64,000 bases of DNA, from positions 64,001 to 128,000 of the IMG/VR virus record IMGVR_UViG_2595698964_000001. One strand, given 5' to 3'. The position numbers were made by a program, and so were the translations under genes. This document shows, piece by piece, positions 7,823 to 55,646 of the stretch. How positions within the stretch are numbered: position 1 is the first letter of the stretch; each line of letters starts with the position of its first letter. A model generated the notes under the pieces. It made no database searches, was not told the DNA's origin, and worked only from the letters and a program-made list of their open reading frames with translations. The DNA is from a virus. Its lineage: Duplodnaviria > Caudoviricetes.

Positions 7823-8248
7823 ATGGCAACTCAAGCTAAACAGACAGTTCATACTGGTGCTACGGTACTACTTATGATTAAAAACAAAGTTGTCGGGCGT
7901 GCACAAGGTCTCGATGGTCGTCGATCCTTTGGTACTGAAGGTGTTTACGAGATTGGTTCTATCATGCCTCAAGAACACGTTCAAAACCGTTACGAAGGTA
8001 GTTTCACCCTAGACCGTTTCTTTGTTAAGAAAAAATCCCTAGCTGATCTTGATTTAGCTCCGTTGGGCGAAGACGTTCTTAAACTAGACATCTTTGACGT
8101 TGTAATTGTAGACAAGGAAACAAACTCTATCCTACGTGCATACCGCGGTTGTACTGTATCCGAGTACAGCGAGACTTTCCGAGTCGGTCAGATTTCCGGG
8201 GAGAACGCTACATTCCAGTATTTAAAAGCGTCCGACTCTAAAAACTAA
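7823..8248 (+). CDS. tail tube protein
   Basis: QTVHTG...VGRAQG...FGTEGVYEIGSIMPQEH, typical of SPO1/K tube proteins. Confidence 0.92.
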   Translation: MATQAKQTVHTGATVLLMIKNKVVGRAQGLDGRRSFGTEGVYEIGSIMPQEHVQNRYEGSFTLDRFFVKKKSLADLDLAPLGEDVLKLDIFDVVIVDKETNSILRAYRGCTVSEYSETFRVGQISGENATFQYLKASDSKN

Positions 8249-8263
8249 ATTGTAAACGAATCT

Positions 8264-8292
8264 AAGACATGGGAGTTATTTCCATGTCTTTT
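8264..8292 (+). terminator. intrinsic terminator after tail tube
   Basis: AAGACATGG/CCATGTCTT stem followed by Ts. Confidence 0.8.
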
Positions 8293-8311
8293 AATTTTAG
8301 GAGGTAATATA

Positions 8312-8701
8312 ATGGATCAAAATAGATTAATCGGTAAAGGAATTTTAGCAGGTACTGGAAGACAACTTACAAAGGATTTGGACTTTACAGAATTCGACCC
8401 TAAATATACAGGACGCTTTATTTTTAAACATCCAACGGTTCTCGATCAGATGAACATAGACGTGTTGAAAACTCAAATGCTACAAGGATTTGAAACACCT
8501 TCTATCATCGCAGACAACATCGCACATATGTCATCGACTCTTACTGTAGTCTTAGTAGAAGCCCCGGAATGGTTCAAGATCAATGAGATTTACGACTATG
8601 AAATCCTAGATCGGGTTTATGAGGAGTACCTGCAATGGTACCGCACCTTTCGAAGAAAAGATAGACAAGGTAACACTCAAGGAGATAGCAAGACATCCTG
8701 A
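8312..8701 (+). CDS. tail assembly chaperone (G-like)
   Basis: Between tube and tape measure; PEWF motif; ends near the slippery site. Confidence 0.75.
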   Translation: MDQNRLIGKGILAGTGRQLTKDLDFTEFDPKYTGRFIFKHPTVLDQMNIDVLKTQMLQGFETPSIIADNIAHMSSTLTVVLVEAPEWFKINEIYDYEILDRVYEEYLQWYRTFRRKDRQGNTQGDSKTS

Positions 8702-9116
8702 CAACCTATTTGACTACTGGATTTGTAAGGAGTTTAAAGTACTCCCGTCAAGCCCGGACTTCCAAAACTTGACGCAGCTTCAAAAGGATATGCTTTATGA
8801 GCAATATCTCGCGTTCAACCCTGAGATTGCTAAACAACACGAAAGAAAAGCGGTACAACAGGATGAGGAATTTGATGAGATCTGGGAAGCAGAAGAGACA
8901 CCAGAAGTAATAGCCGACAACTCTGTTGTCGTTGAGTCTAGTTTTGATGACTTCGCGGAAGACGCGGGACTCGCAGAAGAGAATATTCCATACTCTGACG
9001 CTGCAAAGAACATTCTTGCGAGAATTGAGAAAAAGCTATCAGAGTCTGGGGAAAGAACTGAAACACAATTAAGCGTTGAAGACAACGACGATGATTGGGA
9101 GGAGGTTGATGACTAA
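8619..9116 (+). CDS. tail assembly chaperone extension (GT-like), probably reached by frameshift
   Basis: +1 frame relative to 8312 ORF; no good RBS for ATG 8619; F.VLP..PDF..LT motif; acidic tail. Confidence 0.7.
   Translation: MRSTCNGTAPFEEKIDKVTLKEIARHPDNLFDYWICKEFKVLPSSPDFQNLTQLQKDMLYEQYLAFNPEIAKQHERKAVQQDEEFDEIWEAEETPEVIADNSVVVESSFDDFAEDAGLAEENIPYSDAAKNILARIEKKLSESGERTETQLSVEDNDDDWEEVDD
8645..8653 (+). other. putative +1 ribosomal frameshift site ACC_TTT_CGA
   Basis: In-frame TTT-CGA inside the overlap of the two chaperone ORFs; the downstream ORF is in the +1 frame. Confidence 0.7.
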
Positions 9117-12019
9117 TGGCTCAACAGGAAATCGGTTTAAAGCTGAAGGCTGACACGACGGAGGCCATGAAATCCGTAAAAGAGTTAGAACGCTCTGTTA
9201 ATGGTCTTGAATCGGTAAAACGAAAAGGAGACACAGCAAACGGATTTCTAAACGAGAATGACGTTAGAAACTTTCGTCGTATGAGCGAACAAGCTGAAAC
9301 TGTATACAAAAATTTTCTTAACCGATACTCAACCATGCAACGAGAGTTTGAGAAACGTAAAGGCGAGCTTCAGAGACAAATTGAGACAGGGTCAAACCAT
9401 ACCGAGGTAAACGCTGCTAGAGCAGAGCTTCGTCGAATTGACTCGCAAAGTACTCTTTTAGAAACTCAAGCTCGGGCTGCTGAAAACCTACGTAATAGGC
9501 AAACCTCCTCCCAGTCTGATATTAGCAACATGAGACAGGAAAATGGCGGAACTATGTTGATGGGCGGGCTGTCTAGAGGAGCTATGAGTGCGCTGGCTGG
9601 TACATTAGCAGTCAGCCATCTTTTTGGTTTGGCGAAACAAGGTATGGGAATGGTTAAGAGTGAAGAAGAGTATATGGCGCAACTAGGTAACCGTATGGGC
9701 GGTTATGGAGGCGACTATACTCAAGCTAGAAAAGATGCTATGGATACTGGGATGACTAATGGTTACAAAGCTCAAGAGACCATGATGTTGACTGACCAGT
9801 TTACTAACATGGCAGGTACAAGGTCTAAGGAGAAGACTTGGAATGATATTCAAGACATCCAAACCTCTTCTAGAGCAATGGGAGTTGACTCGAGCACTCT
9901 GGCCAACGCAGGAGGTTTTCTAAACAAAGTTGGCGCGTTACAAGACGGAGATCAGAGGAAGTTCGCTAACCTTATAGCAGGGGCAATTAAAAAAGAAGGT
10001 ATGGAAGGGCGCGACACTGAACTCATAGAAGCGGTCAACTCTATGGCTGTAAACTCTGCAAGTAACCAAGTTAACCTGTCCAAGTCTCAACTTGATCAAC
10101 TGGTCGGGTTCCAAACGATGCTAGGCTCCAAAGAAGAGGGATGGAAAGGTCAACGCGGTGCCGATATCGCATCATCAATTGACCAAGGTATCAAAGGTGG
10201 AGACAACCGCGTTGACATGCTACTTGGTTGGGGTTCTGAGTATCAAGGTGTTAGCGGACGTGCAGAGCTTGAACGGATGAAAGCGAAGGGGATTACAGAC
10301 CCTGAAAATGTCTCAAAAATATTTAGCAATCTAGACAAGGTCGCAGGGGGTAATAAAGACTATCAAGCCCTCATGGTATCGGATATGTTCGGCGTCAGTA
10401 TCGACCAAGCAGACAGACTGCTAGAGCCTGATATCATGGAGTCTTTAAAGAAGGGCGGTATGTCGAAGAAAGAGATAGACTCCTTACTCAAGTCTGGTGA
10501 CAGCGTTGTTGATAAGAAATCTGAAGAATATCAAGGTTCTAAAGCTGCATCCCGAGCAAGGACGGACGCTCAATGGGAAGAAACAAAGAAATCCGGAGGA
10601 GAGTTCTTGGATAATCTTTGGAGACCTGCGGCAGAGTTCTTTACAGGTCTCGACCCCTCAACACAATGGGGAGCCATGGGTATGGGAGCTGCGGGAGCTA
10701 CAATTGGTGGCTCTAAAGCGTTAGGACTTCTTAAGGGGAAATTCCCTCAGTTATTTGGTTCTACAGTCGGAGAAGCTGGAGCAGCGGGGGCGGCTGGTGC
10801 TGGAAGCACTGCAGCTGCATCTGGAGGTATTGGCGCCGCATTAAAGAAAGTTCTTGGTCCATTAGGAACACTAACATCAATTTCTGCGGGTGGTGATATG
10901 GTAGATGGGTTTAGTGACTGGTTATTTGGTCACAGCAAAGGGGATGAAAAGCAACGCGGTATTTTAGACCCCCGTGCGTTAAACCCTTGGGACAAAAAAG
11001 AGAAATACACAGACAGCAAACAGGGGTTTTTACCTTGGTTGTTTGGTGACGACTCTCAGATCAAGGATGACGAGGACGCAAAGACCAAAGCCAAGAAAAC
11101 TTCTAATGGGAAAAAGGACGACGAACAAAAGTCTAAGAGCAAAGAGATGATCGAACTTGAAGCCAAGAACTTAGACAAGAAAGAGTCGTTACTCAACACA
11201 GAAGCCAAACTCAAAGAAAAAGAAGCTAACAATGTTAAACAGCTTAAAGCGGAGAGCACCGATTATAAAAACAACGCAAGTCTTAAAGGCGAGAAAGAGG
11301 ATAAAGGATTCTTTGGAAACCTTTGGGACGGTATTAAAAGTTGGTTTGGCTTTGGAGATGACTCTGGGTCTGGTGCGACACAAACAGCATACGGCGGAGG
11401 GAGTAAGGCGACAGGTTCTAATGCAGCGTTAAGAAACCAAAACCTTAAAGCTGGCGGATCAACGATGACTGCTGCACAAGTTAATCGTTGGATTGACAGC
11501 AAAGCACCTAAAGGGTCAATACTCAGAGGACAGGGCGCTGCTTTTGTAAAGGCGGCTCAGGAGTCTGGTTTGGATGTAAAATATCTTGTAGCCCACGCTG
11601 CACATGAGACTGGTTGGGGAACATCTAATATCGCAAAGAAAAAAGGAAACTTCTATGGTATTGGAGCCTTTGATAACAGCCCAATGGCGTCAGCCTACAA
11701 ATACGGAGGCACATCTGAGGGTATTGTCGAAGGTGCGAAGTGGATAGCCAAGAACTATGTAAACAAAGGACAAAATACTCTAAATAAAATGAGACATAAC
11801 AACGGTGTCCACGAGTACGCTACTGACCCTGACTGGGATAAGAAAATTGCTAACATTATGGCGGGTGCTCCTACCGGGACACTTAACGTGAAGGTTAGTG
11901 GAGGGATTACTGGTTTAAGTGCTGAGAACAACGCTAAGGTAACATCAGCGCTCACCACTACAATCAAAAACAGCAAACTCGCCAAGAATACAACGCAAGG
12001 TAACGGAGGTTGGTTATAA
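9116..12019 (+). CDS. tape measure protein with C-terminal glucosaminidase (GH73-like)
   Basis: Helical Gly/Ala-rich body; C-terminal AHETGWG, NFYGIGA and YATDPDW motifs. Confidence 0.85.
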   Translation: MAQQEIGLKLKADTTEAMKSVKELERSVNGLESVKRKGDTANGFLNENDVRNFRRMSEQAETVYKNFLNRYSTMQREFEKRKGELQRQIETGSNHTEVNAARAELRRIDSQSTLLETQARAAENLRNRQTSSQSDISNMRQENGGTMLMGGLSRGAMSALAGTLAVSHLFGLAKQGMGMVKSEEEYMAQLGNRMGGYGGDYTQARKDAMDTGMTNGYKAQETMMLTDQFTNMAGTRSKEKTWNDIQDIQTSSRAMGVDSSTLANAGGFLNKVGALQDGDQRKFANLIAGAIKKEGMEGRDTELIEAVNSMAVNSASNQVNLSKSQLDQLVGFQTMLGSKEEGWKGQRGADIASSIDQGIKGGDNRVDMLLGWGSEYQGVSGRAELERMKAKGITDPENVSKIFSNLDKVAGGNKDYQALMVSDMFGVSIDQADRLLEPDIMESLKKGGMSKKEIDSLLKSGDSVVDKKSEEYQGSKAASRARTDAQWEETKKSGGEFLDNLWRPAAEFFTGLDPSTQWGAMGMGAAGATIGGSKALGLLKGKFPQLFGSTVGEAGAAGAAGAGSTAAASGGIGAALKKVLGPLGTLTSISAGGDMVDGFSDWLFGHSKGDEKQRGILDPRALNPWDKKEKYTDSKQGFLPWLFGDDSQIKDDEDAKTKAKKTSNGKKDDEQKSKSKEMIELEAKNLDKKESLLNTEAKLKEKEANNVKQLKAESTDYKNNASLKGEKEDKGFFGNLWDGIKSWFGFGDDSGSGATQTAYGGGSKATGSNAALRNQNLKAGGSTMTAAQVNRWIDSKAPKGSILRGQGAAFVKAAQESGLDVKYLVAHAAHETGWGTSNIAKKKGNFYGIGAFDNSPMASAYKYGGTSEGIVEGAKWIAKNYVNKGQNTLNKMRHNNGVHEYATDPDWDKKIANIMAGAPTGTLNVKVSGGITGLSAENNAKVTSALTTTIKNSKLAKNTTQGNGGWL

Positions 12020-42691: not shown

Positions 42692-43354
42692 TTGACAATG
42701 AAAACAGTATTTGTACTTAAAGACGAGAAATTGAAATTCCCAAGTATGCTACAAGTAGCGAAACACCTCGGAAAAAGTCGAATTTACCGCAAAGACTTCG
42801 AACGCTTCAACATCGAGGAGATGACAGAGGAAGAATTTGAGACGTTCCTTGCTACGGAAGACAAGGACGAGCTTTCTGAGACTGTCAAGGCGGAGGAAGT
42901 AGCAGAGGAGATTGTTGAACCTTCTGTAACGGAATCCGTTGTTGAAGTTGAGTCGAAAAACGACGAAACTCCAGAAGTCGCCAACAAAGATGTTGAAGAC
43001 ATTGAAATCCCGTCTTTTAACGACATAGTTGAATTCTCAGAGGCTATGAAGTCCCTCGGAGGGAAAAAGATAATCGCTCTGGCCAAAAAACTGGACTTGG
43101 AATGGAAAGAGCACGATAAGTTATCTGTTCAAACGATGCGTGCTAGTATCGCATTACGTAAACACTTTTTTCCCGGACAGCGTAGACCTAAGAGAAAGAA
43201 ATCACCTTGGAAAAGAATCCCATATCAAGACCTCAAAAAGCTTGCTTTGGAGAATAATCTTACTTGGACAGAGACAGAAGATGAGCGTATCAATCGTATG
43301 TGGGTTATTAACGCCTTGAAGCGTGCGGGTGTTGAGGCTCCTCCTAAAAAATAA
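42692..43354 (+). CDS. early protein: NUMOD1-like HTH, acidic linker, two helical repeats
   Basis: RBS AAAGGAG; F.S..QVAKHLG; two ungapped 33-aa repeats. Confidence 0.65.
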   Translation: MTMKTVFVLKDEKLKFPSMLQVAKHLGKSRIYRKDFERFNIEEMTEEEFETFLATEDKDELSETVKAEEVAEEIVEPSVTESVVEVESKNDETPEVANKDVEDIEIPSFNDIVEFSEAMKSLGGKKIIALAKKLDLEWKEHDKLSVQTMRASIALRKHFFPGQRRPKRKKSPWKRIPYQDLKKLALENNLTWTETEDERINRMWVINALKRAGVEAPPKK

Positions 43355-44487: not shown

Positions 44488-45126
44488 TTGGAAAAAACTT
44501 TAACTTGGGATAGCGTGTTGGAGCAATATCAGAATTTGGTGAAATATGCGGCTAAAAAGACCTATAATGAAGTGGCTGCTAATGTTGGTGTCGATAACTC
44601 TTTGGGAGCGGATGACTTATATCAAGTTGGGTTGGTTAATCTGTATGACTGTTGGGTACGTTATAACCACCTATCTGAAGAAGAGTTCAAAGCGGTATTC
44701 TCAAAGTCTCTCTTCCGTTGTGTTCGGAAACATTGCGCGGCGTCTACAGCGGGTGACATTGAGTCTGTTGAGTATATGCTTGAAGATACCTCTCAAAGTA
44801 GTGACATTGATGCGTTAGAAGAACAACGGGAGCTCTATGAAGAAATTGAAGAGCTTAAAGACTTGGTTGAAAACGACCTAGCTCGTGCGATCATTTCTGA
44901 GATTGTTGCTCCATCCCCAAGAACTCTATACACGATTTGGGCGAGTAAAGCTAGAAAAAAGTGCTTAAAGGGTCAGGGTTACAAGGTTAACGTCCCCAAG
45001 AAAAACGAACTTACTCTGACTCATATTAAGACCTCATTAGGCGTGACTAGTAAACAATTTGATGTAGCATTAAGAGAGATTAGAAGAGTAGCAAAATTTA
45101 CAATGGGAGAGTATTTACCTTGTTAA
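44488..45126 (+). CDS. phage sigma factor (candidate middle sigma)
   Basis: Region 2-like YQNLVKYAAKK..DDLYQVGLVNLYDC..Y; C-terminal HTH-like segment; in a sigA-driven operon. Confidence 0.75.
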   Translation: MEKTLTWDSVLEQYQNLVKYAAKKTYNEVAANVGVDNSLGADDLYQVGLVNLYDCWVRYNHLSEEEFKAVFSKSLFRCVRKHCAASTAGDIESVEYMLEDTSQSSDIDALEEQRELYEEIEELKDLVENDLARAIISEIVAPSPRTLYTIWASKARKKCLKGQGYKVNVPKKNELTLTHIKTSLGVTSKQFDVALREIRRVAKFTMGEYLPC

Positions 45127-45635
45127 ACGTTAATCCCAAACTCTTACAACAGTTAGAAGAATCAGCTTGTTTTGGTCACGCGTATGAAGAGGGTTGTAAG
45201 GAATGTGGTTTGTGCCAACAACGTGTAGAGTGTTCTGCTAAAACGAAAACTAACAGTGTATTTGATGAACTCAAGATTTTAAGCCCAGAATCCAACGAAG
45301 CGCTGTTGGCTTTCCGAACTAAGCGGAACAAACGAAAAAATAAAGAAGACACGTTATCTAGCGAAGAGTCAGTTGAGTTGAGTGTAGTAGAGCCAAGTAA
45401 AGTAGAGTCCGAGAAATCTAAGAAAAAGACTAGAAAAGAATCAAGGAAAGAACGAAGAGCGAGGAAGAAAGCAGAACTTCCTCCCGATTTTCCTAATACG
45501 AAGGAGATGTCTTGCGACGACCTATGGAAGTTGTTGGAGGAACGCGGAGGAGAATGTAAAGTATTTGAAGACAAAAAGATTCAAAAAATGCGGCTTATTA
45601 TGGCTCTTAAAAAGACATATAACATAGGGAAGTAA
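45120..45635 (+). CDS. zinc-binding basic protein next to sigma factor (SPO1 gp27-like by position)
   Basis: CFG..C..C..C...C N-terminus; C-terminal helical domain shared with the 42692 protein. Confidence 0.6.
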   Translation: MLNVNPKLLQQLEESACFGHAYEEGCKECGLCQQRVECSAKTKTNSVFDELKILSPESNEALLAFRTKRNKRKNKEDTLSSEESVELSVVEPSKVESEKSKKKTRKESRKERRARKKAELPPDFPNTKEMSCDDLWKLLEERGGECKVFEDKKIQKMRLIMALKKTYNIGK

Positions 45636-45647
45636 GAAGGGAGAAGT

Positions 45648-48341
45648 TTGATGGCTTTTAATGCGATTGAGGCAGAAAACTGTTGGGACGCTTACATGAA
45701 AACGTTGAAGTTGTTGCTAGACAACAACTTTGACGCTAGAAATGTGTTTTTGCAGATCAACAACACTGAGGACAACTACGTAACCTTTATGCCGCACGAT
45801 ACCGACCCCTTGTTTTGGTATCTGCGTGTGAACTCAGACACTATTGAAGGCGAACTTGGAATAGGTGTCGGTCTTGACGTTCGTTATGACGCAAGACGGA
45901 TGTCAAGAGTAAAAGGTCATGGAACAGCTGATTGGTCGTATCGCGGGGAAACTGGAAGAGCTCCGGAAGACCCTACGTTTTTGAATGTTCTTATGGAAGA
46001 GGATGAAATCTTTCCAAACGCGAGTTATCAAGCAAACACACGAGTTGGAGGAAGAGGACAACTACATGCTGTTAAAGACTTGCTAATGATGGACAAAGGT
46101 AGCGATAAAGGTATTGTAACTTTTTGGCATTACCAACGCGACCTCCTAGAGTATACTAGACGTAAGTATTTAAGTAAAAAGATTATGGGAGACAAGAAGT
46201 GGAGTGATTCTCAGCATCAGCGGATTCCTTGTCCTACAACTTGGCATTTCTCTTATACGCCGGACGGGGTAACGAATAACGTGTATAGTCGCTCTTTGAT
46301 TTGGGATGGACATATTTATGATGACATGTTTCGATTCCCTGAGCCAGCTAAATGGATTGGAGGACACCTTAAAAAATCGTCTTCTGTTGCTACGTTTACA
46401 ATTAGACGTCTTTGGCAGAAAAACTTTGGTAACGCTAAAGAACGTTGGAGAAGTCATTATGATTACTGGTCAAATCATAAATGGATCAAAGACTATTTTG
46501 AACCAAGACAATTTGAGATATTCAAGAGCGCTGATGAGTTTGAGCTCGAATGGATGACAAAAGAGCTTGCGGAGCAAGATTACCGCCTAGGAGCTTTTGA
46601 AGATGGTGATCGGAAGCTTAAGAAACTTCAATCTCAGTATTACCGTGAATGGGTCAAAGCTATGAAGGTTGCGGATATGACAATTGCTCATAGGGTTCTT
46701 GGTCAGATGTTACAAAAAGGTATTGTTTCACGACCTACAAAACGAGCACTTGATTATGTAGACGCTTATACGTTAAAGCAAGCGATACTTGACATTGATG
46801 GGATTTTCCGAGTACAATGCGTACAGTGGGTTGTAAACTACATGTTACGAAGTGGAGACCCGTCTATGAACTATAAAGAGATTCTTGAAATCTTACCTGA
46901 GGAACTTCAAGAGCTCGTTCTTGTAGCCTCTTTGGGGAAAGTTAACAAGGTAGAAAAAGAGGGGATACTTTCCAAGATAAGTCCTGAAGTCTTAGCTATC
47001 TCTGACTATAACGATCTTGTTATCTCAACTAAACCTGTAACGACAACAATCAATCCTACACCGTCTTCAATACCAATACGTGTAGATACTTCTGAGGAAG
47101 AGAGAGAAGAACCCGAGGACATAGAAGAGGTTGAGGAAGTTGAGGACAAAGCTTCTTCAGAAGAAGACGTCTCAAAATCAATATCTAAGATTATTGCATC
47201 AAACTATTCTGCTTTTACTGGCATGCTTAATAGCGAGGATGGTGTTAATAACTCCGACGACGAAGATGACGACGAAGACGACTTTGATGTTACAGACGAC
47301 GTTGATCCTGAACAATCTCTCGAAGATATGGTAAACTCTGTTGTAAATAATGGTACAGATTTAGACTTTGAGGATGAAGATGAAGAGGTTGAAACGGAAA
47401 GTAAACAACCTTCTAAACAGAGTGACGAGACTAACGTTGAGAGCGGCGAAGTTCTTCCTGTCGAGGGTATGTCTTTTGCGGAACTTTTAAAACTACAACT
47501 AGAAAACGAAAAAGAGGGGAAACCTACTGATGATGTTCCTACAACAGAAGAACCCGAAGTTGTTGAAGAGGAGGATGAAGACGTGCGTAAGCCGATTGTA
47601 GTCGATGGAGATAAACCAAACGTGTTCATCGCAGCTCCTTATGGAGGTTCAAGAGTTGACAAAACGCTTGGAGATCAGATCAATAAGGCTGCGGAGAATA
47701 TAGACTATGTTTATTTCCCATTAGAGCCGTTCCATTATCGCGAGGTAAAAAGACATGGTACACAACTCGCTGTTGATGCTTGCGTGTCTAACGACATCCC
47801 TATGATAATGGAGACTCGCAAAGTAGTACCTGAATGGGCCATAGAGGCTTTAGCTAAACATAAGGATAGTGAACTCAGAGTACATCTAAACACTATGGAT
47901 GATAATAAGTGGAAAACATTATACCCTAACAAAAAAGCAGACTCTCCGACAGCATTAATCAAGTCGTTCATTGACAGCTTTCAAGGAGTTGTGCACACTG
48001 TACTAAAAATATCCCCTATTGTGCCGGGGATCATAACCAAGAAGGATGTTCTTGACGTTATTGAGAAAATTCGAAATTGGACACCAACGGTTCAGATTGG
48101 GTTTGCCTCCTTTACGGAAGACGAGTACGAAGCTTTGGATGGACTACTCGGAGACAAGGTTGACAAAGTCAAAAAATACTATTACAAAAAAGAAGGTAAA
48201 TGGTTCGTTTCCGACGAATACAGAGAAGAGTTCCTTGGTTTTGTAAAAGAATTTTTGACTGGTTCGAAAATAAAACTTGAGGTGATGACGGAAGCAGTCT
48301 TTGACGGCGAGGATGTCTCAACTATAAAAATAGAGGATTGA
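45648..48341 (+). CDS. divergent thymidylate-synthase-fold domain + acidic linker + degenerate radical-SAM/SPL-like domain
   Basis: QL..V..L..D..S, RIPC and VYSRS align with the 50827 hydroxymethylase; C-terminal EPF..E..T, NT.DD..W..L.P..A.SP and ISPIVPGI without CxxxCxxC. Confidence 0.65.
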   Translation: MMAFNAIEAENCWDAYMKTLKLLLDNNFDARNVFLQINNTEDNYVTFMPHDTDPLFWYLRVNSDTIEGELGIGVGLDVRYDARRMSRVKGHGTADWSYRGETGRAPEDPTFLNVLMEEDEIFPNASYQANTRVGGRGQLHAVKDLLMMDKGSDKGIVTFWHYQRDLLEYTRRKYLSKKIMGDKKWSDSQHQRIPCPTTWHFSYTPDGVTNNVYSRSLIWDGHIYDDMFRFPEPAKWIGGHLKKSSSVATFTIRRLWQKNFGNAKERWRSHYDYWSNHKWIKDYFEPRQFEIFKSADEFELEWMTKELAEQDYRLGAFEDGDRKLKKLQSQYYREWVKAMKVADMTIAHRVLGQMLQKGIVSRPTKRALDYVDAYTLKQAILDIDGIFRVQCVQWVVNYMLRSGDPSMNYKEILEILPEELQELVLVASLGKVNKVEKEGILSKISPEVLAISDYNDLVISTKPVTTTINPTPSSIPIRVDTSEEEREEPEDIEEVEEVEDKASSEEDVSKSISKIIASNYSAFTGMLNSEDGVNNSDDEDDDEDDFDVTDDVDPEQSLEDMVNSVVNNGTDLDFEDEDEEVETESKQPSKQSDETNVESGEVLPVEGMSFAELLKLQLENEKEGKPTDDVPTTEEPEVVEEEDEDVRKPIVVDGDKPNVFIAAPYGGSRVDKTLGDQINKAAENIDYVYFPLEPFHYREVKRHGTQLAVDACVSNDIPMIMETRKVVPEWAIEALAKHKDSELRVHLNTMDDNKWKTLYPNKKADSPTALIKSFIDSFQGVVHTVLKISPIVPGIITKKDVLDVIEKIRNWTPTVQIGFASFTEDEYEALDGLLGDKVDKVKKYYYKKEGKWFVSDEYREEFLGFVKEFLTGSKIKLEVMTEAVFDGEDVSTIKIED

Positions 48342-48381: not shown

Positions 48382-50295
48382 ATGAAGACAAAAGAAGAAT
48401 TTCATAGAATTGAAATATCAAAGTTTACCGAAGACCTTAGAGAAGCTTTTGGTTACAAGATACAATATAGACAAGACCTTGTTCTTGTTAACATAAGAGG
48501 TTGTAATGGTGCTGGTAAATCTACTGTACCAATGCAAATGCTACAGACTGATCCTGGCGCGTTTATGTTGACACTAGATGGGAAAGATAAGGCAACAGTA
48601 TTTCCGTCTTATGGTTTTGTGGCTATGGGGAGGTACTTTAGTAAAACAGGAGGTCTTGATGGTTTTAAAAATAACGAAGAAACTCTTAAGGTACTTAAAT
48701 TGTTATGGGAGTTGCCTTTTTCGATTATTATGGAGGGTGTAATCTCTTCCACGATATTCTCAACTTACTGCGATCTGTTTAAGGAGCTCGAACAAAGAAA
48801 TAATCCAAAACGGGCGGTCGGTGTGTTGAACTTACTTCCCCCTTTCGAAGTCTGTCTAGAACGGATAAAAAAGAGAACGCCTGAAAAGTTTGATTCCATC
48901 AAGAAAGACCAGATAGAAGGTAAATGGCGAACAGTTAACAGGAACGCTCAAAAGTTTAGAGACGCCGGAGTAACTAGTTGGGATGAGGATAACTCTGTAA
49001 TAGACATTAATGATACTGTTAGCTGGTTTTTCAGTTCGATTAAAAACAATTTACAGCCTGAATTTACGGGTTTAAGGTTAGGGGTTAGATTTCCTACAGA
49101 GGAACCTGTAAAAGCTCTTAAAAAGGCTGAGAAAGGGGTTAAAAGAGGTAAGAAAGGGAGGAAAACTAGTCCCGTAGCTAAAACCTTAGATGACAACGGA
49201 GATGGGGCGTTTCTTCGCTCGTTAAAACGCGAGATAAGACCTCACTGGGATCCCAAATATTTAAACACTCCAGACGACAACGTTAGACTAAGACGAGACC
49301 CTGAGACAGGTCAAACTTTATGGGACATGTATTTTATAAACTTAGTCGAGAGACAGAACATATGGTACAGACGGGTTATACAAGGAAAGTCAAAACCTTG
49401 GACTGATGACCCTGTTATGTCAACGTACCACTTTACCAATGTTGACAGACGTCTTGACAGAGTGACCTTACATTACATCGACAAAGTTCTTTGTAATCTA
49501 GAGGACTCATATGAATCTAAGAAGTTTTTATTGTTAAACACTTTTATCTACAGGTTGTTCGTACGTCCTGAAACGACAGACGCTATGGGTTATATCTTCC
49601 CCGAGACTTTTGAAGAAGATTGGGAAAGAGCTAAGGCAGCATTGAGAGCTCGTCGCGAGTCAGGAGAACCTGTGTTTACCGACGCGTATTTTGTAAATGA
49701 CCTGAAATCAGCCAATCCAGATAGAGCTAACAGCAGTAACAAGACAGAGAATGCGATTCACTTGATTCAATTTATAATTGATCATCTTGACGAATTAGCT
49801 GAGTTCACGTTTAATCCTAAAAACAGCATGGAAGAAGTAATCGAGAAGTTTACGATGATACCAGCAGTAGGTAACTTTAATGCATACGAGGTTGCGCTGG
49901 ACTTAGGTATTGTAAAAGAGATGACAGGAATTGACTTTGTAGACTGGACGCCAGATCACTACGCAAACGTTGGCCCAGGTTGTAAGAAAGGTATCGAATA
50001 TGTATTCGAAGACTTAGGTAATATGTCTCATTTAGACATCGTTTTCTTTATAACCAGTGTGTACAAAGGAGAATTAGAACGACTAGGACTTGAGTACAAA
50101 TACCAAGAAGGTTGTAAGGAGCTCGATCTGAGGGCGCTTGAAGGTTGGTGTTGCGAGATGTCAAAATATTTCAATTACTACGCAACAGAGCGAGGATACG
50201 ACTGGGCAAAAGGGAAACGTCCTAAAAAGAAAATGAACCTGAGGACAGATGATGTAAGCTACCTTAATCCAAGAATAAGTAACCTTGTAAAATAA
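48382..50295 (+). CDS. 5-hmU DNA kinase fused to alpha-glutamyl/putrescinyl thymine pyrophosphorylase clade 1 (amino acid:DNA transferase)
   Basis: N-terminal NIRGCNGAGKST..IIMEG; C-terminal ERQNIW..PWTDDP..YHFTNV.R..D, G.F.AYE...D, GPG and CE..KY. Confidence 0.88.
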   Translation: MKTKEEFHRIEISKFTEDLREAFGYKIQYRQDLVLVNIRGCNGAGKSTVPMQMLQTDPGAFMLTLDGKDKATVFPSYGFVAMGRYFSKTGGLDGFKNNEETLKVLKLLWELPFSIIMEGVISSTIFSTYCDLFKELEQRNNPKRAVGVLNLLPPFEVCLERIKKRTPEKFDSIKKDQIEGKWRTVNRNAQKFRDAGVTSWDEDNSVIDINDTVSWFFSSIKNNLQPEFTGLRLGVRFPTEEPVKALKKAEKGVKRGKKGRKTSPVAKTLDDNGDGAFLRSLKREIRPHWDPKYLNTPDDNVRLRRDPETGQTLWDMYFINLVERQNIWYRRVIQGKSKPWTDDPVMSTYHFTNVDRRLDRVTLHYIDKVLCNLEDSYESKKFLLLNTFIYRLFVRPETTDAMGYIFPETFEEDWERAKAALRARRESGEPVFTDAYFVNDLKSANPDRANSSNKTENAIHLIQFIIDHLDELAEFTFNPKNSMEEVIEKFTMIPAVGNFNAYEVALDLGIVKEMTGIDFVDWTPDHYANVGPGCKKGIEYVFEDLGNMSHLDIVFFITSVYKGELERLGLEYKYQEGCKELDLRALEGWCCEMSKYFNYYATERGYDWAKGKRPKKKMNLRTDDVSYLNPRISNLVK

Positions 50296-50692: not shown

Positions 50693-50770
50693 AATAACAT
50701 CCCCTTCCTTGATTTTCCTGTACCATAATAACTGTCTTTTTACATTCAATGATGTTTTACATAAAAGGCG

Positions 50771-50796
50771 TAAACTTTGATTTTTATTCTTTTATT
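50771..50796 (+). promoter_or_regulatory. phage-specific promoter motif
   Basis: TAAACTTTG-N9-CTTTTATT. Confidence 0.7.
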
Positions 50797-50826
50797 GTTA
50801 TGACTTACGAAAAGGAGGAAACTAAT

Positions 50827-51975
50827 TTGTATACTTTTTCTGGTAACAATCCGGCGCAGATTTACCTTGACGCCTTATACAAAATACAAGAGGAAGGTGA
50901 CAACGTATCACCTCGGGGGATGGAAGTAAAAGAAATTAGACCAGCGTCTATTGAGTATACTAACCCTCTTAACCGAGTTGTTTTTCTTGAAGGGAGAAAG
51001 ATGAACCCATTTTTCTTAGGGATGGAGTCTCTCTGGATAGCTTGCGGGCGTTCTGACGTGGAGTTTCTTACAAAGTATAATAAAGGTATGGCAGCCTTTT
51101 CTGATGATGGTGAGTTCTTTAATGCTCCTTACGGACAAAGACTCCGCGCATGGAACACTAATTCTGTTAGCGGGTTTATCTTTAACCCTATTGACCAGCT
51201 TATTGACGTGTATGAGAAGCTTAAAAAAGACAAGGACTCTAGACAGGCAGTGGCTTCGATTTATAACCCATTGTTTGACAACGTAACCGTTGAAACGTTA
51301 GATCGTCCTTGTAACCTACAGCTAGTGTTTAAGATACGAAATGACAAACTTACATTAACGGTTTACAACCGAAGCAATGATATACACTACGGAGTGTTCA
51401 CTAATCTAGTACAGTTCTCTGTTTTACAAGAGCTAATGGCAGTTTGGTTGGGTGTAGGTGTTGGCGAGTATCATCAAGTTACTGATTCACTTCATAACTA
51501 TCTAAACGACTTTGGCGCGAAGGAAACAGAAAAAATATTCAACGCCTATCCGGAACATACGACCGTCCAAGAGTTTACTTTTGAGAATGAACCTCGAATG
51601 TCAACGAGTTTTGAAGAGTTCGAAGCTATGCGATCTGTATTATTTGGTGGTTGGTTCTTTAAAGACTTACATCACGATGAAGCGTTTAAACAACCTAGAG
51701 TAAGAGAAAGCTTACTTACGGTAATTAAGTCTTTACCCGATGACTATTGGAGAAACATGTTATATGCTGCGTATGCTTATCGCGCCCATAAACTTGAAAT
51801 CCCGGAAGAAGTTATTGTTGGGCTTGACAATATGGCTGATAGCTCTTGGAAAATGTCTTGTATTCATTTTCTTTATGAGAAGTACAAAGACAACTCTTTA
51901 TTCCGGGAGTTATACGCTGATTGGTCTGAAGATAAAGTAAGATTCATCGAAGGTAAAAAACAAAGAAAATACTAA
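50827..51975 (+). CDS. dUMP hydroxymethylase (thymidylate synthase family)
   Basis: TTG 50827 with RBS AAAGGAGG; FSDDG, APYG.R, DSRQAV, PCN, RSND..G..TN and SLH.Y, typical of hmU-phage enzymes. Confidence 0.9.
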   Translation: MYTFSGNNPAQIYLDALYKIQEEGDNVSPRGMEVKEIRPASIEYTNPLNRVVFLEGRKMNPFFLGMESLWIACGRSDVEFLTKYNKGMAAFSDDGEFFNAPYGQRLRAWNTNSVSGFIFNPIDQLIDVYEKLKKDKDSRQAVASIYNPLFDNVTVETLDRPCNLQLVFKIRNDKLTLTVYNRSNDIHYGVFTNLVQFSVLQELMAVWLGVGVGEYHQVTDSLHNYLNDFGAKETEKIFNAYPEHTTVQEFTFENEPRMSTSFEEFEAMRSVLFGGWFFKDLHHDEAFKQPRVRESLLTVIKSLPDDYWRNMLYAAYAYRAHKLEIPEEVIVGLDNMADSSWKMSCIHFLYEKYKDNSLFRELYADWSEDKVRFIEGKKQRKY

Positions 51976-52857: not shown

Positions 52858-52871
52858 ATATTTTTTAATTG

Positions 52872-52902
52872 GAGCATGGTATTGTACCATGCTCTTCTTT
52901 TT
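52872..52902 (+). terminator. intrinsic terminator
   Basis: GAGCATGGTA/TACCATGCTC followed by TTCTTTTT. Confidence 0.8.
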
Positions 52903-52906
52903 GGAG

Positions 52907-52931
52907 TAAACTTTGTAAAATTCTCTTTATT
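52907..52931 (+). promoter_or_regulatory. phage-specific promoter motif
   Basis: TAAACTTTG-N9-CTTTATT. Confidence 0.75.
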
Positions 52932-52961
52932 TGTTGTAGTTACGACAAAGGAGGAGAAGCT

Positions 52962-55646
52962 TTGGAAACAGAAATTATGGAGCCACTAATGGGACGCGGA
53001 AAGAAAACGGCTAAAATTATGTTTGTTACAGATACAGCGTCTGAACACGATTATTACGAAACAGGAAAGTATATGACTGATCAACCGGGGAAACTTCTGT
53101 TGTACTCGCTTAAAAAGTTAGGGATAGACTTGAAAACGGATTGCTACTTTACAGCTCTTGTAAAGCAACCGACTCCGGAAAATAGACAACCTAATAGAGA
53201 AGAAGTTGACGCGTATGTAGGCATATTCGAGAAAGAGGTTGAGATTGTAAATCCTGACATTATTGTTCCTATGGGTAATGTGTCTCTCAAGAAGGTCGGA
53301 GGTAAAACGGGTATTACGAAGTTTAGAGGAAAAGCAACAGTTGATGAGGAGACCGGAAGAATCATCTTTCCAATAATTGGTCCCGATATGCTATTTCTCC
53401 AGCCTAAGCATACTAAGAAATGGACGAAAGATTTACAGAACCTTAAAGAGCTTCTAGATAAGGGAAAGAACTTCCTAGAAAGAAAAGAGGTAACTTATAG
53501 ATATTTAGAAGACTTACCTTCTGTTCTTAAAGAGATTAAGAGAATGAAGAAGTCAAAATGGGTTGTATTTGACTTGGAGACAACAGGACTAGACCCATTT
53601 AAATCTGATTCTAAGATAGTTTGTATCTCGTTAACTGACAGAGACCATTACGGTGTGACTATCCCGTTAGACCATAAAGAGTTTGTCTGGGAGGAAGAAG
53701 ACTTCGAGAAAGTCAAAATGGCTATTAAGCTACTTCTTGAAGATAAGAAAATAAAGAAGATGGCCCATAACGGGAAGTTCGATATGAAGTGGTTGAAAGT
53801 TCAATATGGTATCGAAGTAGCTAACTTTGCATTTGATCCTCTTCTGTGTCACTACCTTACGGTTTCTGAGGAACAGGGTGGTCATGGTCTTAAGAACCTC
53901 GCTTGGGAGTTTACTGACATGGGCGGTTACGATAATGAACTTGATGCCTTCAAGGACACACTACCAGAGAAAATCCGACATAACTACGACAATGTACCTT
54001 GGAAAATACTCAGAACATACGCCGCAGCCGACGTTGACTGTACATTTCGATTATACAAGATATTTAAAGAGTACCTTAAGCAAGATGAGGGCTGGAGGTA
54101 TGTGTTTAAGAACCTTCTTCTACCGGGCTCGTACGCTTTGTCTGACATAGAAATAAACGGCGCGAAACTTGACGAGGACAGAATAGCGTTATACGAGGAA
54201 GTTTTCCCAGCGCGCACTGCTGAAATTGAAGAAAAGTTAAGACAGTACCCTGAAGTATTAGAGATCGAACGCGAGAAGCAGAGATTGTTCGAACTTAGAC
54301 AGCTAGAAATGAAGAAGCCGAAGGAAGAGCGAAACGAGGAAATACTTAAGTACAATAAATATAAGAACTTCAAGTTTAAGTTTAGCTCAACCAATCAACT
54401 ACGAGAACTTCTTTTTGAAAAACTAGGGTTAGACACGCCTTTCCTTACGAAAAAGGGAGAGGAAAGAAAAAGACTTGTAGAGAAAAGAAATAGAGGGAAA
54501 AAGAAGTCAGAACAAGAGAAATTTGTACCAACAATTGAAGAGCTCTCTACCGGGAAAGAGACTCTTGCATATCTAGATGGTAAACATCCTATTGCCTCCC
54601 TCTTGTCTGAATGGAGACGTATTGAGAAAGTTTATGGAACTTATATTAAACCTGCGAGAAGCTGGATTGGAGCAGATGGTCTTGCCCACCCTACGTATAA
54701 CCTTACGGGAACGGTAACAGGACGTTTGTCTTCAGAAAACCCAAACGCGCAGAATTTCCCGCGTAAGTCAAATGATCCTAGAGCATTTGAATACGTTTAC
54801 GGAATAAAAAAGATGTTCGTTAGTCGATTTGGAGCAGACGGACTAATATTACAAGCTGACTACTCTCAGCTGGAATTACGTATCGCAGCAATTTTCTCTA
54901 ACGACAAGGAGCTTATGAATGCGTACAAAGCTGGAAAAGACATCCATATTTACGTTGCTTCAAAGGTTCATAAGATACCTGAGTCAGAAGTAACAAAAGA
55001 CCAACGTACTGCTGCAAAAGCCGTAGGATTTGGACTCTTGTACGGTAAAGGTGCGTATTCTTTGGCTCAAGATATGAAGGTTGATCTTGAAGAAGCGCAA
55101 GAGTTCATTGATACTTACTTCAAGGAGTTTGCAGGAGTTAAGAAATGGCTCGATAACACGAGAAAACAAGTGTTCAAAAATAAGCGTGTTAAGACGCTTA
55201 CAGGACGTTGGAGACGTCTCGCAGCTATTGACTCAACTAACCGAGCAACAGCGGCTGACGCAGAACGTCAAGCTGTAAACTCACCTATCCAAGGTAGCGG
55301 CTCTGATATTACTCTTTCATCTCTAATTGCGTTAGGTCGTCGTTTGAGAGAAGAAGGGTTTAGATCAGTAATTTGTATGACAGTTCACGATAGTATTGTA
55401 CTCGATGTTCATAAAGATGAACTTACTGGGGTTTACAAATTAGTTAAGGAAGTAATGGAGAACCCTCCGTTTGACTGGGTAACTGTACCTATCGTGGCCG
55501 ATGTGGAAATTGGGCGTAACTACGGAGACTTGGTTGACTTGAAACAATTAAGTGACCTTGATGACTATAAAGATGTGTATGAGTACATCGATGTTAAGTT
55601 TGAGGAGAAAAAGAAAGAAGATTTAGAAAAGGCAACGAAGAACTGA
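52962..55646 (+). CDS. family A DNA polymerase with N-terminal UDG-like domain and 3'-5' exonuclease
   Basis: TTG 52962 with RBS AAAGGAGG; DLETTG, HNGKFD, YAAAD, TGRLSS..PN.QN, DYSQLELR, AK...FG.LYG and VHDS motifs. Confidence 0.95.
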   Translation: METEIMEPLMGRGKKTAKIMFVTDTASEHDYYETGKYMTDQPGKLLLYSLKKLGIDLKTDCYFTALVKQPTPENRQPNREEVDAYVGIFEKEVEIVNPDIIVPMGNVSLKKVGGKTGITKFRGKATVDEETGRIIFPIIGPDMLFLQPKHTKKWTKDLQNLKELLDKGKNFLERKEVTYRYLEDLPSVLKEIKRMKKSKWVVFDLETTGLDPFKSDSKIVCISLTDRDHYGVTIPLDHKEFVWEEEDFEKVKMAIKLLLEDKKIKKMAHNGKFDMKWLKVQYGIEVANFAFDPLLCHYLTVSEEQGGHGLKNLAWEFTDMGGYDNELDAFKDTLPEKIRHNYDNVPWKILRTYAAADVDCTFRLYKIFKEYLKQDEGWRYVFKNLLLPGSYALSDIEINGAKLDEDRIALYEEVFPARTAEIEEKLRQYPEVLEIEREKQRLFELRQLEMKKPKEERNEEILKYNKYKNFKFKFSSTNQLRELLFEKLGLDTPFLTKKGEERKRLVEKRNRGKKKSEQEKFVPTIEELSTGKETLAYLDGKHPIASLLSEWRRIEKVYGTYIKPARSWIGADGLAHPTYNLTGTVTGRLSSENPNAQNFPRKSNDPRAFEYVYGIKKMFVSRFGADGLILQADYSQLELRIAAIFSNDKELMNAYKAGKDIHIYVASKVHKIPESEVTKDQRTAAKAVGFGLLYGKGAYSLAQDMKVDLEEAQEFIDTYFKEFAGVKKWLDNTRKQVFKNKRVKTLTGRWRRLAAIDSTNRATAADAERQAVNSPIQGSGSDITLSSLIALGRRLREEGFRSVICMTVHDSIVLDVHKDELTGVYKLVKEVMENPPFDWVTVPIVADVEIGRNYGDLVDLKQLSDLDDYKDVYEYIDVKFEEKKKEDLEKATKN

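Follow-up and report, generated by a model that had tools for sequence, protein, structure and literature searches.

The stretch of DNA analyzed here (hereafter the window) spans 64,000 nucleotides, positions 64,001 to 128,000 of IMG/VR virus record IMGVR_UViG_2595698964_000001, a Caudoviricetes record of 143,986 bases. We focused on a single gene, listed among the open reading frames (ORFs) of the window at 45648..48341 (+). Its product is a three-part protein: a domain of the thymidylate synthase (TS) superfamily (residues 1-450), an acidic spacer (451-643), and a radical S-adenosylmethionine (radical-SAM) barrel without its cluster (644-896). The gene lies directly ahead of a DNA kinase gene for 5-hydroxymethyluracil (hmU), as the original prediction for this locus had stated, and it is in our view the best candidate for the enzyme that turns activated hmU in phage DNA into glutamyl-thymine, perhaps thymine. 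Coordinates are collected in Table 1.

ATG at 45651 is a likelier start codon than the in-frame TTG at 45648, since a ribosome-binding site, GGGAG (45639-45643), lies 7 nt upstream of it and the ortholog in Bacillus phage Goe26 is annotated from the equivalent codon. Goe26 and a second Bacillus phage, SBSphiC, were the nearest relatives listed, with 87% nucleotide identity over the gene. From gene order and Table 3 of Lee 2018 we infer that the gene is gp185 of phage SP10 or a near-identical ortholog; in the part of that paper available to us, the table enters gp185 as 'Radical SAM', immediately ahead of gp186. The literature covered, which extended neither to Iyer et al. 2013, Witmer 1981, and Witmer & Wiatr 1985 nor to any supplement, held no account of a TS-fold domain or of any function beyond this 'Radical SAM' entry.

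Table 1. Features of the gene and its downstream neighbors (window coordinates)
Feature	Position	Strand	Basis or remark
Whole gene	45651..48341	+	896 aa plus stop; in-frame TTG at 45648
N-terminal TS/MilA-fold domain, residues 1-450	45651..47000	+	AlphaFold, Foldseek, VIA, hhalign
Asp152-Lys153, where TS has phosphate-binding Arg126-Arg127	46104..46109	+	hhalign, family alignment
Cys194 codon (TGT), candidate catalytic nucleophile, equivalent to E. coli TS Cys146	46230..46232	+	hhalign; invariant 22/22
Arg214-Asp225; R214-S215 equivalent to TS Arg166-Ser167, Asp225 to Asn177 (base-specificity position, O4/N3 contact)	46290..46325	+	hhalign
Acidic low-complexity spacer, residues 451-643 (193 aa)	47001..47579	+	composition
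C-terminal radical-SAM-type barrel without cluster, residues 644-896	47580..48338	+	structure matches, phrog_9252, BLASTP to gp53
Degenerate cluster loop PYGGSRVDKTLGD (M6 gp53: PYGGYCTVGCAFC)	47637..47675	+	sequence comparison
Neighbor gene corresponding to SP10 gp186: 5-hydroxymethyldeoxyuridine (5-hmdU) DNA kinase plus HMUDK_hel (clade-1 aGPT-Pplase)	48382..50295	+	Pfam HMUDK_HMUD1 2.8e-23, HMUDK_hel 2.4e-44
dUMP hydroxymethylase, classical TS family, Asn at the 177 position, supplies 5-hydroxymethyl-dUMP (hmdUMP)	50749..51975	+	Pfam Thymidylat_synt 2.7e-23; phrog_5131 7e-128

Fold and candidate active site of the N-terminal domain

Pfam returned no match to the whole protein at E ≤ 0.01, the TS family PF00303 included, and relatives fell below the PF00303 cut-off of 24.3 bits (20.9 for P0012 and 20.5 for the proteins encoded on contigs L013 and L014). 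Comparing residues 1-450 with the dUMP hydroxymethylase of the window by BLASTP gave an E-value of 0.17, non-significant alone, with the match covering the PC...VY(S/N)RS stretch. The best hit of a profile search over PDB sequences with the family alignment was DisA (E 0.46), TS chains appearing at E 1.2-2.5 over about 25 residues, and PHROGs held nothing useful for the domain or its distant homologs. Profile-to-profile alignment with hhalign paired our 22-sequence family with E. coli ThyA and four phage hydroxymethylases at 95.7% probability (E 9.2e-9, 214 columns), setting GQL..DKGSDKGIVTFW against DQI..DPDSRRIIVSAW, PC against PC, and YSRS against YQRS. The motif matches on which the original prediction had called the first ~450 residues a divergent hydroxymethylase paralog are therefore real homology, and the domain is a very derived member of the TS superfamily. 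It is not a close paralog, given an identity of 14% in hhalign and a best structural match elsewhere in the superfamily.

That match is MilA, the CMP 5-hydroxymethylase of mildiomycin biosynthesis (PDB 5jnh, 5b6e). An AlphaFold model of the domain, built from the 22-sequence alignment (mean predicted local distance difference test score, pLDDT, 85.8; predicted template modeling score 0.88), has a TS core at about residues 1-290 followed by a MilA-like helical subdomain at about 294-450. Foldseek listed 396 matches to the model at E ≤ 0.001, with MilA first (E 5.6e-9, TM 0.69-0.70 on the target) and TS next. In VIA-align, MilA reached Z 28.0 (root-mean-square deviation 2.8, 298/318 residues, model residues 6-412), compared with 16.6-17.5 for classical TS and 18.3 and 17.7 for the flavin-dependent TS-fold proteins 9iqc and AfhB. 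MilA matches all 450 residues because it has an extra five-helix C-terminal domain, as described in the available text of PMC5175136. The two proteins thus share the TS core, the additional helical domain, and an Asp at the base-specificity position, whereas their identity is only 11-12%. MilA is a folate-dependent mononucleotide enzyme with a full phosphate clamp; the phage domain, in contrast, lacks equivalents of R21, R126, and R127, is fused to a radical-SAM relic, and is encoded within a DNA-modification cluster.

The family is small. A HMMER search over 1.84 billion representative proteins recovered only 14 relatives at E ≤ 0.001, and a second homolog search, with 14 matches among 6899 candidates, added close relatives of 716-872 aa. 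Stand-alone homologs of the domain, 400-500 aa long, also exist. One homolog of 855 aa (P0006, 38% identity) is extended at its N-terminus by about 270 aa that include a Walker-A motif. This region had no Pfam match and no significant BLASTP match to two HMUDK domains; Atlas points weakly to P-loop kinase-like clusters (0.88, under the 0.9 level), a lead only, by which the protein may be a kinase fusion.

Relative to classical TS and the phage dUMP hydroxymethylases (PF00303), the domain keeps the equivalents of Cys146, Arg166, and Ser167 together with the DxxS...W motif. P193-C194 is paired with P145-C146 of TS, and the codon position that the original prediction gave for the catalytic cysteine (46230), like its retained RS pair, was borne out. 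Across the 22 aligned sequences, whose identities go down to 20%, D63, G74, D94, W95, D164, R191, C194, R214, and D225 are invariant. The domain differs from its classical counterparts in having Asp in place of Asn177, Asp-Lys in place of Arg126/127, and, as aligned, a gap at Asp169. In the SP10 clade the loop bearing R21 also falls in a gap. The absence of three out of four phosphate-binding arginines is consistent with a nucleotide bound as part of a polymer. A distant clade still has one R126-like Arg and an R-S-x-D motif, and at the R21 position it carries an RKGR loop. As for the folate contacts, the alignment leaves Asp169 opposite a gap and the W80-W83 segment opposite one of 10 residues, in a region where both the alignment and the model (pLDDT ~71-75) are weak.

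These residues bear on whether the domain might instead serve the nucleotide pool or act on cytosine, with dCMP, CMP, hmdUMP, or cytosine in DNA as its substrate. According to the available text of PMC5175136, the 177 position is Asp in cytosine enzymes (Asp186 of MilA, Asp179 of T4 dCMP hydroxymethylase) and Asn in TS and dUMP hydroxymethylase. Asp225 is thus the residue expected of a cytosine-specific enzyme, MilA is the best structural match, and the arginines of the distant clade would suit a free nucleotide. The SP10 clade, however, lacks three of the four arginines that bind phosphate in TS, and SP10 is described with modified thymine only in the portions of Lee 2018 and Lee 2021 covered here. 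A pool enzyme would also sit oddly with the fusion to a relic of a DNA enzyme and the constant linkage to a DNA base kinase. We consider such an activity highly improbable.

Acidic spacer and C-terminal barrel

The acidic stretch is a flexible spacer. Its 193 residues, somewhat more than the ~170 originally estimated for an acidic linker at this place, include 66 acidic and 11 basic ones and no Cys (net charge -55, isoelectric point 4.05). In homologs of 716-724 aa the spacer is nearly gone.

The model of the C-terminal domain (pLDDT 85.3) adopts a radical-SAM fold, so that TS and radical-SAM folds, the outcome foreseen for the two domains, were both recovered in models. Radical-SAM enzymes headed the Foldseek list, with SuiB at E 3.9e-7 and spore photoproduct lyase (SPL) at a query-normalized TM score of 0.64-0.65. 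VIA Z-scores were 16.5 for SuiB, 15.4 for NifB, about 14 for viperin, and 13.7-13.8 for SPL. The resemblance to SPL-like barrels claimed in the original prediction therefore stands, with SPL (PDB 4fhc), whose barrel works on a thymine C5 methylene in DNA, giving the longest aligned stretch (218 residues) but not the top score. Unlike SPL, the domain has no cluster and no significant Pfam match; searched alone at E ≤ 1, it gave chance-level rows only.

Sequence comparison groups the domain with M6 gp53, the radical-SAM N-alpha-glycinylthymine isomerase. The C-terminal domain matched phrog_9252, annotated 'DNA repair photolyase', at E 1.5e-10 (a family defined by gp53, which itself scores E 0 to it), and gp53 directly by BLASTP at E 1e-14, with 30% identity over 116 aa. 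By tblastn it matched 74 phage records, mostly M6-like. The two proteins are homologous and share the PYGG ahead of the cluster loop, whereas gp53 has 480 aa and the C-terminal domain only about 250, with neither CxxxCxxC nor the Cys-rich C-terminus.

In place of CxxxCxxC stands the loop PYGGSRVDK, and PY-x3-R occurs at the cluster loop in 12/12 rows of alignment A3. The CxxxCxxC motif, which the original prediction had already reported missing, was found in 0/25 family proteins and in both positive controls, M6 gp53 and the radical-SAM protein of contig L013. Radical chemistry is therefore excluded. An active SPL-type repair enzyme or isomerase was considered as an identity for the protein and ruled out by the missing cluster motif.

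Comparison with Goe26 indicated that both domains are functional, given the excess of synonymous over non-synonymous codon differences in the N-terminal domain (130 versus 10) and in the C-terminal domain (51 versus 7). The spacer had 45 synonymous and 46 non-synonymous differences.

A functional protein could still be a non-catalytic one. Two dead enzyme folds might bind hmU-containing or phosphorylated DNA, or might scaffold the kinase and further enzymes and direct them to their targets, for instance by determining the sequence context of modification. The C-terminal domain is certainly disabled as a radical-SAM enzyme, the N-terminal domain, as aligned, lacks the canonical TS residues R21, R126, R127, and D169, and the long acidic spacer suggests a tether. 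Yet the cysteine, the Arg166 equivalent, and Asp225 do not vary in 22 sequences with identities as low as 20%, which would be difficult to account for if the domain were not catalytic. Strong purifying selection on the N-terminal domain and the occurrence of stand-alone homologs also speak against a purely accessory role, which we regard as improbable.

Distribution and gene context

The gene stands directly ahead of the 5-hmdU DNA kinase gene in the window, in Goe26, in YungSlug, and on contigs L002 and L003. A tblastn search at E ≤ 0.01 found the N-terminal domain in 4 of 50,697 phage records, and the hmU DNA kinase domain occurs in 411. Plain hmU phages had no match to the N-terminal domain, so that common homologs in phages keeping hmU, which the original prediction had named as a ground for refutation, do not arise. 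Most kinase-bearing hypermodifying phages likewise had none. With 4 records against 411, the TS-like domain is not the general thymine-forming enzyme of kinase-bearing phages.

In the Lysinibacillus phages LysYB1 and LysYB2, the slot of the TS-like gene is filled by a 639-aa protein (M3_0048 in LysYB1). Its N-terminal domain resembles the amino-acid:DNA transferases (ADDT), and an acidic spacer joins it to a cluster-less barrel of the same kind as that studied here (44% identity, E 3e-67). The N-terminal domain of LysYB1 matched Pfam PF18724 (ADDT) at E 3.4e-5 with 24.1 bits, and at 9.8e-7 in a record scan; against PDB sequences it gave chance rows only (E ~1). A viral contig, L010, is of the same type. 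ADDT had no match in the whole genome of the window at E ≤ 1, nor at E ≤ 0.1 in Goe26, YungSlug, and a complete 150-kb contig (G001), while LysYB1 and the control M6 were positive. The TS-like domain and ADDT thus appear, from these family scans, to have complementary distributions across genomes.

Distant TS-like homologs, about 22-24% identical, show the same wiring. Contig L012 carries, in order, a gp53-like ORF (E 2e-5 to gp53), the TS-like gene, an HMUDK gene (4.2e-16), and a TS-family gene. On L013, an intact radical-SAM gene (CTFGCQYC; E 0.002 to gp53) overlaps the start of the TS-like gene, which is followed by a P-loop nucleotide kinase gene. Among the homologs, the clade of P0008, P0010, and P0014 had no loci in genome contigs or viral contigs; that of P0009 and its relatives had none in genome contigs and was found on one short metagenome contig and two viral contigs.

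The L013 block deserves separate mention. At 8047-11904 of this 41-kb viral contig lie a DNA methylase fragment, the gp53-like radical-SAM gene, the distant TS-like gene, and a Ploopntkinase3 gene. Classical TS, HMUDK_hel, and ADDT were not found on the contig, a fragment that is 37% complete. The block may represent a different, undescribed base modification.

Downstream of the gene in the window, the kinase-HMUDK_hel gene and the dUMP hydroxymethylase gene are followed by a fusion of uracil-DNA glycosylase (UDG) and PolA. Upstream lie class Ib ribonucleotide reductase genes, a sigma-like gene, and small regulators. The sigma-like gene, of sigma-70 type, and two small paralogs labeled 'transcriptional regulator' (phrog_13880, phrog_13400) occupy 42692-43354, 44488-45126, and 45120-45635 (+), directly upstream of the modification genes, and a sigma-like gene is likewise directly upstream in L002, L003, and YungSlug.

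The UDG-PolA gene (52869-55646, +) encodes a 925-aa DNA polymerase in which, according to Pfam, a uracil-DNA-glycosylase domain at the N-terminus is fused to a 3'-5' exonuclease and PolA. It fits the UDG-PolA family that a preprint of 2025 and an NAR paper of 2026 describe from phages whose genomes carry modified T, and the fusion also occurs in L003. The kinase gene matched phrog_800, labeled 'terminase small subunit', at E 8e-267; the same label stands on hmU DNA kinases in many phage records, including M6 gp54, and is a widespread mis-annotation. In YungSlug, a gene with a Thoeris anti-defense Tad2-like domain (L007 11512-12039; Pfam 1.1e-13) lies between the hmU DNA kinase and HMUDK_hel genes. 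Mobile elements also occur within the block: an HNH endonuclease gene follows HMUDK_hel at L002 14797-15507, and the polymerase ORF at L003 9153-11336 has a weak intein-splicing match.

Proposed function of the TS-like protein

We propose that the N-terminal domain uses its TS fold to transfer glutamate to DNA, with 5-phosphomethyl-dU (5-PmdU) as the substrate. This assignment is made by analogy; we hold it tentatively and put it somewhat short of probable. Replication would place hmU in the DNA, as the literature has it, and the neighboring kinase would phosphorylate it to 5-PmdU. This kinase activity is reported in vitro for SP10 gp186, and also for a kinase-only truncation, in the available text of Lee 2021; it is the one enzymatic step of the scheme that others have demonstrated. 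The flipped-out base could then enter the old dUMP pocket of the N-terminal domain, where Cys194, the counterpart of TS Cys146, would add to C6 while Asp225, at the Asn177 position, might protonate or hold O4/N3. Departure of the phosphate would leave an exocyclic 5-methylene, as in TS and in the ADDT enzyme PUGT, and addition of the alpha-amine of L-glutamate with release of the cysteine would give N-alpha-glutamylthymidine. The Cys addition and phosphate elimination envisaged in the original prediction are reasonable on this basis; the reduction to thymine that it placed after them is not favored, for reasons taken up below.

On this view the domain would stand in for the ADDT (aGPT-Pplase2) enzymes of other phages without being related to them. 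For those enzymes (M6 gp51, ViI gp247, PhiW-14 gp109, and PaMx11 gp46) the proposed chemistry is the same, namely attack of a Cys on C6 of 5-PmdU, O4 protonation, loss of phosphate, and addition of an amine. They are not homologous to the TS-like domain, as ADDT has a helix-hairpin-helix glycosylase-like fold according to the accessible portion of Lee 2021, and the analogy is a functional one only. As set out above, LysYB1 has an ADDT-like domain in this genomic slot, joined to a barrel of the kind that is the fusion partner here. The Cys attack and O4 protonation that the PUGT mechanism requires have candidate residues in Cys194 and Asp225. A mechanism of this kind was also put forward for SP10 by Witmer in 1981, with a Cys-C6 adduct 'reminiscent of classical thymidylate synthases', as quoted in the part of Lee 2021 covered here.

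The C-terminal barrel is probably a relic of a gp53-like radical-SAM partner and most likely holds DNA or the modified base. That partner, intact in L013, may have lost its function in the SP10 lineage, where the product stays N-linked, and may survive there as a binding module. An N-linked SP10 product without gp53-type isomerization is in keeping with the loss of the cluster from the barrel.

The transferase assignment is favored by three observations: the ADDT-barrel fusion of LysYB1 in the same slot, the lack of an ADDT match in the genomes with the TS-like gene, and the position of distant homologs between a gp53-like gene and a base kinase. It would also fill a gap. The original prediction had named the neighboring gene as the glutamyl transferase, a role that its C-terminal domain does not readily support. 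That domain is HMUDK_hel, of clade 1, and belongs by Pfam to the same family as M6 gp55. The available text of Lee 2021 reports that gp55 is not needed for glycine transfer in vitro and that only clade-2 enzymes have been shown to transfer amino acids. Since the M6 homolog of this clade-1 domain is dispensable, SP10 is left without an assigned glutamyl transferase; aG/PT-PPlase2 was not detected in SP10 according to the portion of Lee 2018 consulted.

Several points weigh against the assignment. Every catalytic step ascribed to the protein is inferred, a glutamate-binding site was not found in the predicted transferase, and the clade-1 domain of gp186 is an alternative candidate for the glutamyl transferase. 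Asp225 is the hallmark of cytosine-specific members, in contrast to the Asn of uracil enzymes, so its suggested part in O4 protonation is conjectural. The ADDT match of LysYB1 lies under the Pfam cut-off (24.1-24.9 versus 26.2 bits) and spans profile positions 16-157 of 232, with the catalytic Cys region outside it, and BLASTP of this N-terminal domain against M6 gp51 was non-significant (E 0.37). That ADDT is absent from TS-like genomes depends on a family scan in which no candidates came up at first, and four further records are fragments that are 4-37% complete. Finally, the contexts of distant homologs come from three contigs only (L012, L013, and L014).

The same intermediate could lead to thymine instead. 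Cys194 would attack C6 of phosphorylated hmU in DNA, phosphate would leave, and the methylene would be reduced by tetrahydrofolate, NAD(P)H, or flavin. The TS fold with its Cys146 and Arg166 equivalents suits this outcome, the intermediate is identical to that of TS, and flavin-using TS-fold proteins are among the structural matches (9iqc and AfhB, above). In the accessible text of Lee 2021, borohydride reduces the enzyme-bound methylene formed on 5-PmdU by M6 gp51 to thymidine, which indicates that such a reduction is chemically easy, and the same text names no thymine-forming enzyme. The restriction of homologs to phages other than plain hmU ones is compatible with this reading as well. The introduction of Lee 2021, in the part available, states that all studied kinase-bearing phages form T from hmU. 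A domain present in 4 records, compared with 411 for the kinase, cannot be their common route to T, and this rarity weakens the reading. The gaps at Asp169 and W80-W83, in an alignment region of low confidence, weaken a TS-type hydride transfer from tetrahydrofolate, and the closest relatives, MilA and the hydroxymethylases, carry out no hydride transfer. A phage dihydrofolate reductase was found in 0/5 genomes searched, a weak point, as the host could supply the enzyme. The domain is constantly paired with a gp53-like radical-SAM protein and is exchanged in LysYB1 for an ADDT-like one, and both facts point toward the hypermodification branch. Taken together, we consider a dedicated thymine-forming reductase unlikely.

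A single TS-fold enzyme acting on polymer DNA might also make both SP10 products. Its methylene intermediate would split by sequence context between capture by glutamate, giving glutamylthymine, and hydride reduction, giving thymine, with the barrel as a reader of DNA or base that sets the choice. This combined scheme we regard as quite unlikely.

SP10 was one of the earliest phages in which the remodeling of thymine in already synthesized DNA was demonstrated. If the proposed glutamate:DNA transferase is real, a textbook enzyme family of the nucleotide pool, thymidylate synthase, would be extended to polymer substrates. It would represent a second, independent evolutionary route to amino-acid:DNA transfer, in line with the TS-like mechanism that Witmer proposed in 1981, and would offer a new tool for site-directed DNA chemistry.

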